This document shows positions 48,914-55,615 of a stretch of DNA of 59,753 nt, piece by piece; the first letter of the stretch is position 1; every line of letters begins with the position of its first letter. Origin of the DNA: Blastocatellia bacterium (GTDB taxonomy: Bacteria; Acidobacteriota; Blastocatellia; UBA7656); NCBI GenBank assembly GCA_039648975.1, contig JBBWZK010000221.1, positions 1 to 59,753 of the forward strand. Direction: 5' to 3'. Under the pieces are notes generated by a model. The model ran no database searches and was not told where the DNA came from. It saw only the letters and a program-made list of their open reading frames with translations. The position numbers and the translations under genes were made by a program.

Positions 48914-49165
48914 ATGTTGTCGGTCGGACGCGCGCTTTACATCCAGGATCAGCCCGTCATTTGTCTTGAATGTGAAGGAATTGGCGCACAGCTATCCACC
49001 GGCCATCTACAGGCTTGGAAGATGAGGGGTTATGTCTATGCCTACTGTTGTGCGGTCTGCGGCACCTTCGAGGTGAGACGCAAAGCAAAGGTTTTAGCCT
49101 TTCGGCAGTCCGCGAAATCCGAGGGACTGGAAGCGCCGCAGCGATTGACTAGAAACAGCATATAG
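48914..49165 (+). CDS. Small putative zinc-ribbon protein
   Basis: AAGGGA RBS; CLEC...CAVC pairs; 10-bp gap to the transporter gene. Confidence 0.55.
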   Translation: MLSVGRALYIQDQPVICLECEGIGAQLSTGHLQAWKMRGYVYAYCCAVCGTFEVRRKAKVLAFRQSAKSEGLEAPQRLTRNSI

Positions 49166-49175
49166 CAATCAGATT

Positions 49176-51500
49176 ATGTCCGCTTTGAAATCTCCCAATC
49201 GCGTCCGTGTGGTCGTCGCCACCACGGTGATGCTTTCATTCATCTCGTTCTGGCGGGCGGCGGCCATTGTGTTGAACGATCTCGGCTCGTCGGCCTTCTA
49301 CGTCGGCGGCATCTCGGAACAGTTCATCGGCAAAGCCGCGCCATGGTTTGTCCTGGGCGTCATGCTGTTCAGCTACGCCGTGCGCGCCCTCTACATCGAA
49401 TCGTCGACCATGTTCACGCGCGGCGGCGTCTATCGCGTCGTCAAGGAAGCCATGGGCGGCACTATGGCAAAGCTCAGTGTCTCGGCGCTGATCTTTGACT
49501 TCATCCTCACCGGGCCGATTTCGGGCGTCTCTGCCGGCCAGTACATCGTCGGCTTATTTGCGCAGACCATGACCTATTTCGGCCATCCGTGGACGCCCTC
49601 GCTAGAATTAATCAACCTGCTGGCGGCAGGCATCGCCTCGCTGGCAACAATCTATTTCTGGTGGCGCAACATCAAGGGCATTCACGAATCATCAGACGAC
49701 GCCCTGCGCATCATGTATATCACCACCGTCATGGTGGTGATCATGATCGGCTGGAGCATCATCACGTTGATTGAGCGCGGCGGACAGATGCCACCGCTGC
49801 CGTCGGCAGACAATCTGAGTTTTGCGGACTCACCCGAACACGCGCTCGGCTGGCTGGAAGCCTTGCGCTGGTTCGTCCCCGATGGCGACCGTTTTCGCAT
49901 CGCCGATCATGCGCCGTCGCTGATCGGCCTGCTCGGCATCCTCATCGCCTTCGGCCATTCGGTGCTCGCCATGAGCGGCGAAGAGACGCTGGCGCAGGTC
50001 AACCGCGAGCTTGAACATCCCAAGCTCAAGAACCTGAAGCGCGCCGGCTGGGTCATCTTCATTTACTCGCTGCTGTTCACCTCGCTGGTCAGCTTCTTTG
50101 CGGTCGCCATCATCCCGGACGAGACGCGCGGCCAGTACCTCAACAACCTGATTTCTGGCCTCGCCATCAACTTCGTCGGGCCAGGCTATCTGAAGCTGAT
50201 CTTTCAAGCGTTCGTCGTGGTGGTCGGCTTTCTGATGCTATCGGGGGCGGTCAACACAGCCATCATCGGCTCCAACGGCGTCTTGAACCGCGTCTCGGAA
50301 GACGGCGTGCTCACCGATTGGTTTCGTGCCCCGCACCGCAAGTACGGCACCACCTATCGCATCGTCAACCTGATCGCCATCCTGCAACTGGTGACGATTC
50401 TCGGCTCGCGCGGTGACGTCTTCCTGCTCGGCGAGGCTTATGCGTTCGGCGTCATCTGGAGCTTCACATTCAACGCCGTGGCGACGCTAGTGTTGCGTTT
50501 CAAACGCCCGGAAGGCCGCGAATGGAAAGTGCCACTCAATCTGCGCCTCGGCAAGACCGAGATCCCCATAGGCTTGATTCTGACCGCCCTGATATTGCTA
50601 TCCATCGCGCTGACGAATCTCTTGACGAAGAAGATTGCCACGCAGGCAGGCATTGCGTTTACCGCGGCGTTCTTTATTCTCTTCACGATCTCCGAGCGCC
50701 GCAATCGCCGCAAGCAGGATCTGACGCTGGCCAAGCTCGACCGTTTTCAGTTACAGCACAGCGAGACCGTCAGCCAGGAAGCGGTCGGCGCGCGGCCCGG
50801 CAATATGTTGGTGGCGGTGCGCGATTACAACACGCTGACGCATCTCGAATATGCGCTCGATCACACGAATACGGATGAGCAGGATATTGTCGTGATGAGC
50901 GTTCGCGTGGTGACGGGCGAAGGCGGTGATCAGGAGCCGGTGGATGAAAACCTGTTTGCCGAATACGAGCAGCGCTTGTTTACGCGCGTCGTGGCGCTTG
51001 CGGAAAAGCATGGCAAGCCGGTTGATCTGCTGATCGTGCCGGCCACCAACATCTATGACGCGGTGGCGCAGGCGGCGGTGCGCCTGGATTCCGAGCAAAT
51101 CATCGCCGGGCAGTCGGCGAAGATGACGCTACAAGAGCAGGCGCGCGAACTGGGCCGCGCCTGGGAGCGGCTGCCGGAAAAGCCGCGCCGTCAGGTGCTG
51201 TTCCGCGTCATCGAGCCCGGTAATCAAGAACATATCGTCTACCTGGGAGCGCATGCGCCTACCCTGACCAACGAAGATCTCAGTCTGATTCACCAGATCT
51301 GGTTACAGGTCAGCAACGTCCCGGCTCGCCAGCGCGTCCATCACCGAGATGTCGTGCGTGTAGCATTGGAACGGTTGAAGCGTGATCTGAAAGGGCGAGC
51401 GGATGTGATGCTTGATTTTCATAAACTGGAGCGCAAGGCAGATCGTGAAACGAATTCCAAGTTTGAACGGAACGGATCGGAAAGCTCCACTAGAAAGTAA
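49176..51500 (+). CDS. APC-superfamily transporter with cytoplasmic C-terminal domain (KimA/YdaO-like)
   Basis: About 12 TM segments; LNDLGSSAFY and AMSGEETLAQ match the KimA-type TM1/TM6 patterns; hydrophilic alpha/beta C-terminal domain. Confidence 0.8.
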   Translation: MSALKSPNRVRVVVATTVMLSFISFWRAAAIVLNDLGSSAFYVGGISEQFIGKAAPWFVLGVMLFSYAVRALYIESSTMFTRGGVYRVVKEAMGGTMAKLSVSALIFDFILTGPISGVSAGQYIVGLFAQTMTYFGHPWTPSLELINLLAAGIASLATIYFWWRNIKGIHESSDDALRIMYITTVMVVIMIGWSIITLIERGGQMPPLPSADNLSFADSPEHALGWLEALRWFVPDGDRFRIADHAPSLIGLLGILIAFGHSVLAMSGEETLAQVNRELEHPKLKNLKRAGWVIFIYSLLFTSLVSFFAVAIIPDETRGQYLNNLISGLAINFVGPGYLKLIFQAFVVVVGFLMLSGAVNTAIIGSNGVLNRVSEDGVLTDWFRAPHRKYGTTYRIVNLIAILQLVTILGSRGDVFLLGEAYAFGVIWSFTFNAVATLVLRFKRPEGREWKVPLNLRLGKTEIPIGLILTALILLSIALTNLLTKKIATQAGIAFTAAFFILFTISERRNRRKQDLTLAKLDRFQLQHSETVSQEAVGARPGNMLVAVRDYNTLTHLEYALDHTNTDEQDIVVMSVRVVTGEGGDQEPVDENLFAEYEQRLFTRVVALAEKHGKPVDLLIVPATNIYDAVAQAAVRLDSEQIIAGQSAKMTLQEQARELGRAWERLPEKPRRQVLFRVIEPGNQEHIVYLGAHAPTLTNEDLSLIHQIWLQVSNVPARQRVHHRDVVRVALERLKRDLKGRADVMLDFHKLERKADRETNSKFERNGSESSTRK

Positions 51501-51561
51501 CGGCGGAAATCAGAGCGTTGCGGCTTGAAGATCAATGGCATGAAGTTAAGCCAGTCGGCTG

Positions 51562-51871: not shown

Positions 51872-52318
51872 TTACTTGATCGTGAAGGTCAATGTCTTGG
51901 CCGGCGGATCATCTTTCCCAGGCTTGGGATTCAAATAAAGATCGACCTTGTATTCGCCCACCGGCAGACCTTGCGACGGCGTAAAGGTGAAGTCAACAAT
52001 ATTCTTCTCGCCGCCTGCATTATCCACATCCGACTCTACGATTTTAGAGTTTGGCTCCTGGCCCGGAACATTCACAATGCTCCATTTCGCTCTCACCTTC
52101 GTATTGTCAGGCGCGTTAGCAAGTTTCACCACACAATGAATGACAGGAATATGGGGATCAAACGTAGTCGTAGGCCCAACCGCCTCTTTGTCGGCAGTTA
52201 CATCCTTGGCCAGGGTTGCGTCCGCGATTCTGGCGGTTGAGAAGCTGACGTTGCAGGCCAGTTCTATCGCAGTAAAAACAACCAGCAGGAAAAAGACCAA
52301 TCCTTTTTTTCGATTCAC
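51872..52318 (-). CDS. Putative lipoprotein with Ig-like fold
   Basis: GAGGTG RBS before GTG52318; lipobox-like ELAC; C-terminal LPVGEYKVDLYLN...TLTFTIK. Confidence 0.7.
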   Translation of the reverse strand: MNRKKGLVFFLLVVFTAIELACNVSFSTARIADATLAKDVTADKEAVGPTTTFDPHIPVIHCVVKLANAPDNTKVRAKWSIVNVPGQEPNSKIVESDVDNAGGEKNIVDFTFTPSQGLPVGEYKVDLYLNPKPGKDDPPAKTLTFTIK

Positions 52319-52472
52319 AATCACCTCATTCTCATATTCGAAATAGACATTCCCCGCCACTTTAAGGGGCCTGAAATCGCGCCTGAGATAATTGATTATA
52401 GCCGCCGAAATGTCAAGGTCTGAATTTGCAATCTGGTTAAAACGGGTGCGATTAAAAGAGGGACTACGGTTA

Positions 52473-52502
52473 TGGAGTGCGGCGACCAGTCGCCGCACTC
52501 CA
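52473..52502. repeat. Perfect 13-bp-stem palindrome (REP-like)
   Basis: TGGAGTGCGGCGA-CCAG-TCGCCGCACTCCA. Confidence 0.8.
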
Positions 52503-52554: not shown

Positions 52555-53607
52555 TTAGCCTGTCGTCAGAGAGGCTTGACGCTCGATCAGAATTGAATCG
52601 CCGAATTCATGCGTCCGGTAGCCGAGTAACTCCATCTCTTCGCTGGCGCGACATAGCGTCGCATCATCCACGAAGGCGCGCAGCAATTGATAATGACTGG
52701 TGCCGGGCTCATGTGTACCCGATAGGATCGCATCAACAACCTGCAATAGAGTCGTTTCGTCGATGCGCTGTGTCGCCAGACCTTCGCCGCTACTCACCTG
52801 ACCGTCGTGCATTGCCGCATGCTCAAGGGCGCGAACGACGGTGGTGCCGACGGCAACGATGCGGCCCCCGCTGGCCCGCGTGCGGCGGATTGCCGCAGCC
52901 GTCATGGCCGGGATGCTATAAGGCTCGTCAAACGGCAATTGGCGGTCGAGCTCATCATCTCCTGTAGATGAAATTCCGGCAGCGTGCGTCAAGGTGGCGA
53001 AGGCGACGCCGCGTTCGCGTATTGCCATCAGCGTCTGCCAGTCCAGCGCGAAGCCGGCTGATGGCGGTTCAAATGCGACGGGCGGGCCAGCTATCGGCGC
53101 CCACACATCCCACAACGCCAGCGGCGACCGTATGTGCGCGTATTGGATCGGTCTGCCGTGATGCGTGAGGCCGGACCATATTTCGTCGGGCGAGCCTTCG
53201 AGACGCAGAGACACCCGGCGCGGGTGATCAATCAATCGCTCAACCGTCGCCGACAGCGGCCCGAGCGCGAGGCGATCACCCTGTGCGAGCGGCGGCGGCG
53301 GCGGGCGATCTTCTGTGCGCGTACAGAAGTCGCCTGCGCCAAACACAATGGCGGAAAAATGGCTAACCTCGTTCGCCGCAAGCGAGTGGCGACCGGCGAG
53401 CCGCACTTCAATCGCTGCCTTGCTTGATATGTGCTGGCCTTGCAAACTCGCGGGCAGCGTCGCCGCGTCGTTAGCAATGAGAAGGTCGCCTGACCGCAGG
53501 AAGTCGACGACCGCCGCACGACGCGCGTGCTTGATCTGCCCGTTCGCGTCGATGACCAGCAGCTTCGCCTGTGGCGGGCGTTGTACGGGTCGGTCGGCGG
53601 CAATCAT
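52555..53607 (-). CDS. Divergent QueA-like protein (SAM:tRNA ribosyltransferase-isomerase fold)
   Basis: LIANDAATLPASL, AVGTTVVRALE, EFGDSILI follow QueA, but the canonical YQTVYA, AAPTAGLHF and TLHVG motifs are replaced. Confidence 0.75.
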   Translation of the reverse strand: MIAADRPVQRPPQAKLLVIDANGQIKHARRAAVVDFLRSGDLLIANDAATLPASLQGQHISSKAAIEVRLAGRHSLAANEVSHFSAIVFGAGDFCTRTEDRPPPPPLAQGDRLALGPLSATVERLIDHPRRVSLRLEGSPDEIWSGLTHHGRPIQYAHIRSPLALWDVWAPIAGPPVAFEPPSAGFALDWQTLMAIRERGVAFATLTHAAGISSTGDDELDRQLPFDEPYSIPAMTAAAIRRTRASGGRIVAVGTTVVRALEHAAMHDGQVSSGEGLATQRIDETTLLQVVDAILSGTHEPGTSHYQLLRAFVDDATLCRASEEMELLGYRTHEFGDSILIERQASLTTG

Positions 53608-54371
53608 CGCATCTCTCCTATATGTTCATCGCCCATCTGCACAGCGCTCTGTGGCTCACGGTTAGAGAGCGCGGCGGCAATGGCATCAGCAAGTTCACGC
53701 GCCGACTCTTCAGGATGCTTCAAGGTTGCAGGGTCTGCGTCAGGCACAGCGAGCGCATGCAGCGGCGTGTCCATATCTCCTGGATCAAGCGATAGAAAAC
53801 GCACGCCATCTGTGACGAGTTCGGCGTCCCAGATGCGGCTCAAATGATGCAAAGCCGCCTTGCTCGCGCCATAGGCTCCCCATTGCGGATAAGCGTTGAT
53901 CGCTGCGTCGCTCGACACGTTTAACACGACCGCACCACGACCTTCGCGCGCCGCAGCGGCCAACGCGCCGAGCAGTGCCTTGGTCAGCCGAAACGGCCCG
54001 ACGAGGTTGGTCGCCAGGGCGCGCTCCAAGTCCTCACAGTCTGTGTCGCCAAGCAGCGCCAGAGGCGTCGGCCCAAGCTCTGATGCGTTATTGATCAACA
54101 CGTCGAGCCCGCCGAGTTCGCCGACGATCTGCATCGCCATCGGGTAAATATCATTCTTCTCCGAGACGTCGCCGACGATCCCATGCGTGCCGGGATGCTC
54201 GCGCCCCACCGCTTCGACGAGTTCGCGACGACGTGCGACGAATGCGACCTGCGCGCCACGGGCGACCAACTCTTTCACGAAAGCCAGTCCGAGCCCGGAG
54301 GTGCCGCCTGTGACCGCCACGCGCAAACCGCTTAACGGATCAGGGAAATCAATCTGTCGTTTGCTTTGCAT
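53604..54371 (-). CDS. SDR-family NAD(P)-dependent oxidoreductase
   Basis: VTGGTSGLG, DVLINNA, NVSS, YGASK; ATGA overlap with the queA-like gene. Confidence 0.92.
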   Translation of the reverse strand: MQSKRQIDFPDPLSGLRVAVTGGTSGLGLAFVKELVARGAQVAFVARRRELVEAVGREHPGTHGIVGDVSEKNDIYPMAMQIVGELGGLDVLINNASELGPTPLALLGDTDCEDLERALATNLVGPFRLTKALLGALAAAAREGRGAVVLNVSSDAAINAYPQWGAYGASKAALHHLSRIWDAELVTDGVRFLSLDPGDMDTPLHALAVPDADPATLKHPEESARELADAIAAALSNREPQSAVQMGDEHIGEMR

Positions 54372-54460
54372 ATTCACTAGCCCTCAAACTTTCTGAACCA
54401 ATTGGCTTGCGCCAATCGTCTTAAATTTTGTTGCCAGGACGCGACAAGCGTCTTATACTT

Positions 54461-54520
54461 TTCCAAGAAACCACTTGGAATATAATTTTTGGATTTGAAT
54501 ATGTCAAGTAAACACTTGGG
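54461..54520. promoter_or_regulatory. Two CAAG-N6-CTTG palindromes flanking a TATAAT box: putative operator/promoter
   Basis: TTCCAAGAAACCACTTGGAA (54461-54480), TATAAT (54481-54486), GTCAAGTAAACACTTGGG (54503-54520). Confidence 0.6.
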
Positions 54521-55205
54521 AAATTCTTCGCGCCTGGCGCGCCCGGCGGCTGAGCGGTTGTTGGTGCTGCTCAAAACTCGTGGGCCGCAGACGACGGCAG
54601 ATCTGGCGGCTGAGGTGGGCATCACAGGCGAGGCGGCCCGGCAGCAACTCGTGCGGCTGGCGGCGGACGGGCTGGTCTCAGCGCTCTCCGAATCACGCGG
54701 AGTCGGGCGGCCTGTGCAGGTGTGGAGCCTGACTGTCACAGGCAACGCACGGTTTCCTGACGGGCACGCCGAACTCACCGCACATCTCATTCAGTCAATT
54801 CGCACGCAGTTGGGTGAGGAGGTGCTCGACCGGTTGATCGACGCGAAGACGGTGGAATCGAAGGCGGCTTACGCGACGGCCTTGCGCGGCGCGGCCAGTC
54901 TGGAAGAGAAGGTCGAGCGGTTGGCTGAGGCGCGCACACGCGAAGGTTATATGGCAGAGTCGTGGAAGGAGGGAAACGATTACGTCCTGGTCGAGAATCA
55001 CTGCCCCATCTGTGTGGCGGCGGCGAGTTGTCAGGGGTTCTGCCGGGCCGAGCTCGACACTTTCAGGGAGGTCTTGGGGCGCAACGCTTCGGTCGAGCGA
55101 GATGAACATATGGTGGCTGGAGACCGGCGTTGCGCCTACCGGATTTCGCTCAAGCGGCGATCTCGTAAAGAACCGACGCCCGCCGCTGCGGCGGCGGCTA
55201 AGTGA
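54501..55205 (+). CDS. SufR-like winged-HTH regulator with Cys-rich C-terminal domain
   Basis: LLVLLKTRGPQTTADLAAEVGITGEAARQQLVRL...GRP HTH; ENHCPIC...C..FCRAE motif. Confidence 0.85.
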   Translation: MSSKHLGNSSRLARPAAERLLVLLKTRGPQTTADLAAEVGITGEAARQQLVRLAADGLVSALSESRGVGRPVQVWSLTVTGNARFPDGHAELTAHLIQSIRTQLGEEVLDRLIDAKTVESKAAYATALRGAASLEEKVERLAEARTREGYMAESWKEGNDYVLVENHCPICVAAASCQGFCRAELDTFREVLGRNASVERDEHMVAGDRRCAYRISLKRRSRKEPTPAAAAAAK

Positions 55206-55291: not shown

Positions 55292-55615
55292 TCACTTCGT
55301 TGCGCGGGTCTTTTTCGCCGCGCCTTTCTTGGCGCTGGATTTTTTCGCAGCCTTTTTCGTCGCGGCTTTCCTGGTTGCGCCTGCCTTCTTCGCGCTGCCC
55401 TTCTTCGTTGCTTTGCCAGCGGTTGATTTCTGCTTGCCGGCCTTGCCACTGACGGCTTCAGCGACCTTTGAGCCGATGAAGTGCGCGGCTCCCCCTACGA
55501 CGCCGATGGCCGTGCCGACAATCGTTACCGCATCGCCGACCAGATCAACATCTTTAGCGTTCTTGCCCGTCGTTTTTTTTCTTGCTTCGTTCTTTCGTTT
55601 GTTTGTCTTTGCCAT
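55292..55615 (-). CDS. Lys/Ala-rich basic protein (histone H1-like tail)
   Basis: GGGAGAGG RBS; AKKA/ATKK repeats; central Gly-rich hydrophobic segment. Confidence 0.65.
   Translation of the reverse strand: MAKTNKRKNEARKKTTGKNAKDVDLVGDAVTIVGTAIGVVGGAAHFIGSKVAEAVSGKAGKQKSTAGKATKKGSAKKAGATRKAATKKAAKKSSAKKGAAKKTRATK

Follow-up and report, generated by a model that had tools for sequence, protein, structure and literature searches.

QueA is the tRNA preQ1(34) S-adenosylmethionine ribosyltransferase-isomerase (EC 2.4.99.17), and to our knowledge it is the only enzyme that donates the ribose of S-adenosylmethionine (SAM). Outside the enteric bacteria, SoxR directly drives a few oxidoreductase, monooxygenase and efflux genes upon exposure to redox-cycling compounds; no SoxR regulon listing a QueA-like gene was found in the literature. 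Another group of iron-sulfur (Fe-S) sensors, the COG2345 family, displays a wHTH (winged helix-turn-helix) and a central GRP AT-hook, with a [4Fe-4S] cluster held by C179, C192, E195 and C220 in Mycobacterium tuberculosis SufR, whose site is a palindrome with A/T flanks (10.64898/2025.12.26.696629). In this work, we analysed a stretch of 59,753 nucleotides (hereafter, the window) corresponding to contig JBBWZK010000221.1 of Blastocatellia bacterium GCA_039648975.1, a soil bacterium represented by a 6.9-Mb metagenome-assembled genome (MAG) that is 85% complete. We focused on a cassette in which a diverged QueA paralogue and a short-chain dehydrogenase/reductase (SDR) are encoded divergently from a SufR-like regulator. 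Our results indicate that this cassette is not an artefact but a real variant, hitherto uncharacterised, of a known enzyme family, and that the logic of its regulation is coherent; no paper describing the family of QueA paralogues paired with an SDR was found in our literature searches.

The QueA-like protein matches Pfam family PF02547 with 146 bits and falls below both QueA equivalog cut-offs (NF001140, 113.2 bits vs 324; TIGR00113, 85.2 vs 267), with an identity of 27-29% to canonical QueA sequences. Its AlphaFold (AF2) model, built on 21 sequences, displayed a predicted local distance difference test (pLDDT) score of 90 and a predicted template modelling (pTM) score of 0.90, and the only significant fold matches in the PDB were the QueA structures 1VKY, 1YY3 and 1WDI, with which it shares the two-domain fold, 19 core residues, a similar length and the Pfam family. 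Unlike QueA, the paralogue is coupled to an SDR, is present in addition to a canonical gene, is patchily distributed and plasmid-borne in some hosts, and is found under stress regulators instead of in a queA-tgt-yajC context. A first-pass annotation of the window had proposed looking for a canonical queA elsewhere in the genome: one is present on another contig (C74), scoring 427 bits on the Pfam profile vs about 146 for the paralogue, together with tgt on a further contig (C31, 510 bits), and therefore the cassette gene is not the only QueA of this genome. All tested carriers hold both copies, and their Pfam scores are bimodal, ranging from 410 to 442 bits for the canonical proteins and from 131 to 166 for the paralogues.

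Alignment with canonical QueAs revealed that WDVWAPIA replaces YQTVYA, FEPPSAGFAL replaces AAPTAGLHF, LTHAAGISSTGD replaces TLHVGxGTF and SGTHEPGTSH replaces TNFHLPxS, in agreement with the four substitutions listed in the first-pass annotation. These replacement motifs are kept across 114 paralogues and are therefore not the product of random decay; the clade further displays the motifs NDAATLPASL, GRPIQY, ExPSAG, LTHxAGxSSTGD, GTHEPxxSHY and THEFGD as its own. We then compared the 114 paralogues with 5 canonical QueAs, taking as common those residues found in at least 90% of the paralogues and in all the canonical proteins. The 19 common core residues were N46, P52, E67, L70, R130, G151, P182, A184, G211, E228, the AxGTxxxRAxE block (A252, G254, T255, R259, A260, E262), H299, G336 and D337. 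Further, the paralogues depart from the canonical consensus at 16 positions that are fixed among them, including H208, H305, H333, E180, D221 and an insertion around residues 90-98; the barrel domain displays an insertion of about 12 residues. The 19 retained core residues together with the 16 paralogue-specific positions argue that selection has acted on this family towards an altered function, and not for decay. Residues E180, H208, D221, H305 and H333, present in at least 90% of the 114 paralogues, are candidates for a new metal or acid-base site.

The enzyme pair is widespread. An exhaustive HMMER search with the paralogue over 1.84 billion representatives at 50% identity recovered 478 clusters when the threshold was set at E <= 1e-30, and 5098 when it was E <= 0.001; a word-indexed search with the paralogue gave 8000 matches, the best 120 of which were all 71-93% identical. 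A maximum-likelihood tree was built from 120 sequences, and in it the 115 paralogues were split from the 5 canonical QueAs (a small sample, all from one class) by a branch with a support of 100 in the Shimodaira-Hasegawa-like approximate likelihood ratio test (SH-aLRT); thus, the phylogeny against bona fide QueA that had been suggested as a check places the paralogue in a separate clade. A sequence from Nonomuraea and one variant from a relative occupy the base of this clade, and the paralogue of the window belongs to a 26-member subclade (support 98) together with metagenomic, planctomycete-like and Rhizobium sequences.

The product of the first gene of the operon matches adh_short with 134 bits, and the motifs T23GGTSGLG30 (T23-G-x3-G-x-G30), N96NAS99, N124, S155, Y169GASK173 and PGxxxT (199-204) were read from its translation; the TGxxxGxG and NNAG/S motifs and the catalytic N-S-Y-K residues of classical SDRs are thus all present, and arginines R49/R50 after strand 2 suggest the use of NADP(H). 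An SDR homologue is located directly upstream of the QueA paralogue in each of the 26 loci with enough flanking sequence, which come from several phyla and include two acidobacterial MAGs (L004, L005), 14 relatives (L007-L020), loci L036, L037, L039, L044, L045, L049 and L051, the contig of P0170, plasmid p42f of Rhizobium etli (L047), Nonomuraea (L048) and Fimbriiglobus ruber (L055). In nine of these loci (L036, L037, L039, L044, L045, L047, L049, L051 and L055) the gene calls of SDR and paralogue overlap by 4 nt. The SDR is the better conserved partner, with 84% vs 71% identity in L037 and 69% vs 58% in R. etli. Natural SDR::QueA fusions were also considered; the long representatives hold only fragments of both domains, which look like frameshifted calls across the overlap, and they were consequently not counted as evidence of fusion.

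Regarding the divergent gene, its product matches TIGR02702 (SufR_cyano) with 103.8 bits (E = 1e-29), with helix-turn-helix (HTH) matches at residues 23-74. It is not a SufR proper, as the score lies under the equivalog cut-off of 178.8 bits and the gene adjoins those of the SDR and QueA paralogue, not sufBCDS. Among five homologues with 45-83% identity, the G73-R74-P75 AT-hook, C172, C185, E188 and C215 are invariant, and so are C175 and C181, which brings the invariant cysteines to five. The ligand spacing is +13, +3 and +30 (C172/C185/E188/C215) vs +13, +3 and +28 in M. tuberculosis SufR, and the regulator probably holds a [4Fe-4S] cluster on these four residues. The TIGR02702 match and the complete Cys/Cys/Glu/Cys set bear out the earlier description of a SufR-like, Cys-rich regulator. 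As in SufR (Synechocystis, M. tuberculosis Rv1460, Streptomyces avermitilis) and Corynebacterium glutamicum ArnR, all of them [4Fe-4S] repressors of COG2345, a wHTH is followed by the GRP AT-hook; the Cys-X12-Cys-X2-Glu...Cys ligand pattern is that of M. tuberculosis SufR, and the gene is divergent from its presumed target and probably autoregulated, with a palindrome flanked by A/T-rich sequence over the promoter. Unlike SufR and ArnR, its target would be the SDR/QueA-paralogue operon and not suf or nar; the operator core is CAAG-N6-CTTG instead of the CAAC-N6-GTTG of SufR; and C175 and C181 are two additional invariant cysteines with respect to SufR. At least 19 of the best 120 homologues of the regulator lie on contigs (all above 6 kb) equal in length to one that bears a homologue of the QueA paralogue.

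The two divergent transcription units are separated by a 130-bp intergenic region, where two putative operator sites and a promoter-like sequence for each direction were located (Table 1); in 3.1 kb, a consensus scan found 4 promoter-like sites vs 0.8 expected. Site A covers the start points predicted for the two promoters, and site B covers the -35 element of the SDR promoter. The perfect 18-bp form TCCAAG-N6-CTTGGA, with 0 mismatches, has a single occurrence in the 6.9-Mb assembly. In L039, L037 and F. ruber L055, a TTGACA element separated by 16-17 nt from a TAT-rich -10 occupies the same position, and the arms of site A are conserved while its spacer varies. Site B has counterparts in the same three loci (at ATG+3 in F. 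ruber), and its conservation is inseparable from the coding constraint on the N-terminus of the regulator, MSSxxL. This geometry of operator and promoters suggests repression and autoregulation; a regulator transcript starting inside site A, as predicted, would allow autorepression. For the regulator, the true start is most likely ATG 54501, because M5 is invariant in the homologues and one of them, with 234 aa, displays 90% identity along 100% of this shorter form; for the SDR, ATG 54371, which is preceded by GAGGG, is the more likely start. The open reading frame positions, the ATGA overlap and the divergent orientation of the regulator agree with those given in the first-pass annotation. 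The neighbouring downstream gene (51872-52498) has promoter-like sites of its own and is not kept in related loci, and the unit therefore comprises three genes.

Table 1. Genes and predicted regulatory features of the cassette (positions refer to the window).
Feature	Position	Strand	Description
QueA-fold paralogue	52555..53607	(-)	350 aa; operon gene 2
ATGA stop/start overlap, SDR/QueA paralogue	53604..53607	(-)	...GAG ATG CGA TGA TTG...; SDR TGA and paralogue ATG share 4 nt
Classical SDR	53604..54377	(-)	257 aa; operon gene 1; start GTG 54377 or ATG 54371
Promoter-like, regulator	54431..54459	(+)	TTGCCA-17-TATACT; 10/12 consensus matches
Putative operator site A	54461..54480	(.)	perfect palindrome TTCCAAG-N6-CTTGGAA; A/T-rich runs at flanks
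Promoter-like, SDR operon	54479..54507	(-)	TTGACA-17-TATATT; 11/12 consensus matches
SufR-like (COG2345) regulator	54489..55205	(+)	divergent to SDR/QueA-paralogue operon
Candidate operator site B	54504..54519	(.)	TCAAG-N6-CTTGG, 1 mismatch; overlaps SDR -35 and regulator codons 2-6

Within the 26-member subclade, three kinds of regulator were found over the enzyme pair: SufR-like, SoxR and XRE-cupin. In L036, a planctomycete-like contig whose paralogue and SDR are 73% and 78% identical to those of the window, the divergent gene belongs to the MerR family and carries the SoxR motif CIGCGCLSLDRC (CIGCGCLSxDRC type), with a SoxR-box-like promoter. A similar arrangement is found in plasmid p42f of R. 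etli CFN42, with the order soxR (RHE_RS29355), SDR (RHE_RS29350), QueA-like gene (RHE_RS29345) and a redoxin gene, where the paralogue is 58% identical and the 16-bp palindrome TTCAAGTTAACTTGAA lies within a promoter with a 19-bp spacer. In both cases a true SoxR is encoded divergently from the orthologous pair, and a SoxR box is located within a promoter with a long spacer; this small local regulon with detoxification-type neighbours resembles those of non-enteric SoxR; unlike them, the window presents an unrelated Fe-S sensor that is probably a repressor and not a MerR-type activator. A divergent regulator with an XRE-type HTH and a cupin domain (186-200 aa, with conserved His/Glu/His in the cupin) is found in L049, of the same subclade, in the marine locus L045, in L051, in the contig of P0170 and in 9/10 of the loci from relatives. 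Most other cassettes of the family, including those of the organism's relatives, carry this type of regulator, which resembles PuuR-type repressors and is absent from the window. The genes next to the enzyme pair vary and include a redoxin, a glutathione S-transferase (GST), resistance-nodulation-division (RND) efflux parts and a metallo-beta-lactamase (MBL)-fold protein, which fit a role in redox or Fe-S stress. The strongest argument for such a role is the presence of two unrelated Fe-S redox sensors over near-identical enzyme pairs, and the SoxR-wired orthologues give independent support to the earlier proposal of a redox- or Fe-S-responsive locus.

The half-sites CAAG(T)...(A)CTTG of the window (54461-54520) resemble the SoxR box TTCAAGTTAACTTGAA of R. 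etli (L047 5225-5245) with a different spacing, and this likeness between a SufR-like operator and a SoxR box may be coincidental, or else a trace left in the promoter by an exchange of regulators. In addition, positions 54409-54461 contain a direct repeat of 21 nt (GCGCCAATCGTCTTAAATTTT / GCGACAAGCGTCTTATACTTT), with copies 32 nt apart, in the predicted leader of about 100 nt of the SDR operon; its conservation in L039 is not obvious.

The distribution of the cassette is patchy. The paralogue is absent from the four genomes of the same genus, and the copies found in 14 of the 60 closest relatives are distant in the tree from that of the window. With a GC content of 61.5%, against 57.7 +/- 2.9% in the genome, the cassette ranks within the top 4% of genome segments of 2.65 kb. 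Horizontal transfer is the simplest reading, given the absence in the genus, the nesting with planctomycete and Rhizobium copies instead of the XRE-cupin-linked copies of the relatives, and the raised GC content. Comparison with the same-genus genomes gave no clean empty site, and synteny was limited to a 774-aa gene at 48951-51514, so that the borders of an insertion cannot be drawn. The enzyme pair was also found in 32 Rhizobium plasmid records. Separately, an SDR/paralogue pair is encoded in L044, a 5.1-kb contig of GCA_054390455.1, a MAG labelled as Candidatus Kariarchaeaceae (Asgard archaea); the pair may reflect either a transfer into archaea or a binning error.

With the integration of these findings, the cassette is best read as a self-contained, horizontally mobile three-gene stress unit, and we favour, with moderate confidence, the view that the paralogue keeps a QueA-type activation of SAM, that its acceptor is not tRNA, that the SDR carries out a coupled redox step, and that the pair is derepressed upon loss of the Fe-S cluster. 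According to this model, the wHTH and the GRP AT-hook of the regulator would bind the CAAG-N6-CTTG palindromes with A/T-rich flanks, and the regulator would thereby repress the SDR/QueA-paralogue operon as well as its own, divergent promoter. Once the cluster is damaged or lost, owing to oxidants, nitric oxide, redox-cycling compounds or Fe-S shortage, the DNA would be released, and both enzymes would be induced in equal amounts. The paralogue, with its invariant QueA core, presumably SAM-binding and catalytic, would activate SAM the QueA way and transfer the carbon skeleton derived from the ribose of SAM; its acceptor would not be preQ1-tRNA but probably a small metabolite, either redox-active or damaged, and the SDR would perform the preceding or following redox step at the expense of NAD(P)H. 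The first-pass annotation had reached a similar view, that is, a redox- or Fe-S-responsive pathway of two enzymes combining SAM-ribosyl transfer with a reduction. The gene order and coupling, the diverged paralogue and its separate clade with motifs of its own, the canonical queA and tgt elsewhere in the genome, the full SufR-type ligand set, a dedicated and conserved operator and the exchange of regulators, including the SoxR-wired orthologues, now stand as findings; the use of SAM, the transfer of its ribosyl moiety, the reduction by the SDR, the non-tRNA substrate, the order of the reactions, the binding of Fe-S and the repression are steps that we infer from the sequence.

Several observations weigh against this model. 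According to a review, the available QueA structures are all apo forms; hence, it is a guess to assign SAM binding to the residues in common and acceptor binding to those that differ. The XRE-cupin type is the commonest regulator of the family, and the signal to which it responds may be other than redox. The paralogue retains the barrel domain, and net charge and isoelectric point, considered as a sign of lost RNA binding, did not separate the paralogues from the canonical enzymes, so that its substrate may be an RNA. Furthermore, all carriers tested possess tgt, a canonical queA and mostly queG (13/14 of the carriers among the relatives), a co-occurrence by which a tRNA role is neither proved nor excluded. 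The sole hint of independence from queuosine is the 11.85-Mb record of Nonomuraea gerenzanensis, with a single QueA-family locus, which is linked to an SDR and is 31% identical to the paralogue of the window. Ranked tblastn searches detected no canonical QueA in this record at a sensitivity that did recover canonical QueAs in other chromosome-sized records. Likewise, none of the best 60 matches, out of 71, was a Tgt from this record, although the Tgts of other actinomycetes were detected. This hint comes from a distant member and from non-detection in ranked lists.

A paralogue still acting on tRNA would, together with the SDR, provide a stress-specific route to queuosine or a variant of it, such as an Fe-S-independent bypass of QueG, which depends on cobalamin and [4Fe-4S] clusters. 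We consider this decidedly unlikely, even though the entire QueA fold is kept, barrel included, control by SufR-like and SoxR proteins is what would be expected of an Fe-S-independent back-up enzyme, and tgt and a canonical queA are present in every tested carrier. The assembly studied here has neither queG (TIGR00276) nor queH (PF02677), which would also suit a bypass; nevertheless, the lack of queG is most likely an assembly gap, as the MAG is 85% complete and queG was found in 4/4 same-genus genomes and in 59/60 relatives (queH in none). Since carriers keep queG, there is no replacement pattern, and the cassette was rejected as a replacement for QueG/QueH. Also contrary to a tRNA role are the basal, SDR-linked member of Nonomuraea, from the record in which the ranked searches detected no canonical QueA and no Tgt within the best 60 of 71 matches, the plasmid-borne copies of Rhizobium, the replacement of most signature motifs of the family, and the context of the cassette, with no que genes nearby and no riboswitch found in its leader.

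A further alternative is that this QueA-fold protein has abandoned the donation of SAM ribose, having become, for instance, a metal-dependent isomerase, lyase or hydrolase acting on a nucleoside, a sugar or a xenobiotic, or a non-catalytic partner of the SDR. The three new invariant histidines and two carboxylates (H208, H305, H333, E180 and D221) do resemble a novel site for a metal or for acid-base catalysis, the paralogue has lost many of the canonical motifs, and there is no SAM-bound QueA structure by which the cofactor site could be recognised as kept. Nevertheless, the 19 core residues remain conserved at 90% or above across 114 diverged paralogues, which argues that a common catalytic or cofactor function was retained, and strong purifying selection together with the strict 1:1 coupling to the SDR disfavours a mere scaffold, so that we regard this alternative as unlikely. 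A merely coincidental neighbourhood, in which the regulator would control Fe-S biogenesis genes elsewhere and the SDR/QueA pair would be constitutive, is hardly credible. The regulator does belong to the family of SufR, but the perfect operator is unique in the assembly to this intergenic region and overlaps both promoters, and the regulator, the operator and the enzyme pair are found together in the acidobacterium, in metagenomic contigs and in a cultured planctomycete. Moreover, the genome has a second SufR-like gene (contig C287, 33401-33988; L042 6336-7061, (-)), with 80 bits on TIGR02702, directly upstream of an apbC/mrp-type gene for an Fe-S carrier ATPase and with an AhpC/TSA peroxiredoxin gene some 0.5 kb further downstream; Fe-S housekeeping or homeostasis is likely regulated by the product of this second gene, a better candidate for that role than the cassette regulator.

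Returning to the favoured reading of QueA-type SAM activation on a non-tRNA acceptor, its chemistry can be extended tentatively. The paralogue may constitute the second known case of SAM 'ribosyl' transfer, in which a sulfonium ylide would be formed, the ribose opened and depurinated, and the product carbocyclised onto a small-molecule nucleophile or water; the cyclopentane diol-epoxide thus formed would next be oxidised or reduced by the SDR, and the outcome would be either the covalent trapping of a reduced redox-cycling toxin or a carbocyclic, reductone-like antioxidant. Unrelated Fe-S redox sensors (SufR-like and SoxR) would induce the system. We hold this detailed scheme to be possible but doubtful; if true, it would represent a new stress-defence chemistry present in many phyla. 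More generally, a clade that keeps the QueA core, changes the rest and is always paired with an SDR points to an undescribed SAM reaction, and its wiring to SufR-like, SoxR and XRE-cupin regulators offers a physiological handle, namely redox or Fe-S stress. The pair is also present in cultured, non-pathogenic hosts, R. etli CFN42 (p42f) and F. ruber. In addition, the locus clearly illustrates a 'SufR-like' regulator of COG2345 whose target is not suf and whose operator can be recognised; such a case is of use because the way in which this family recognises DNA was described only very recently.

Other observations were made on the surroundings of the cassette and on the queuosine genes. Convergent with the regulator, positions 55292-55615 (-) encode a 107-aa Lys/Ala-rich protein that resembles a histone H1 tail and displayed no family match except a weak low-complexity one. 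The canonical QueA of the genome (C74, L001 1495-2733 (-)) has 412 aa and harbours a charged, low-complexity insert of about 55 residues (RWSDAETRGHGD...RPRVAP) after the AVGTTxxRALE block, whereas the QueAs of the relatives are without it. Finally, resistance plasmids of Klebsiella and Enterobacter (H87-H93) carry a diverged Tgt, 34% identical to that of the genome studied here, and the match overlaps the annotated rmtG gene (16S rRNA methylase).

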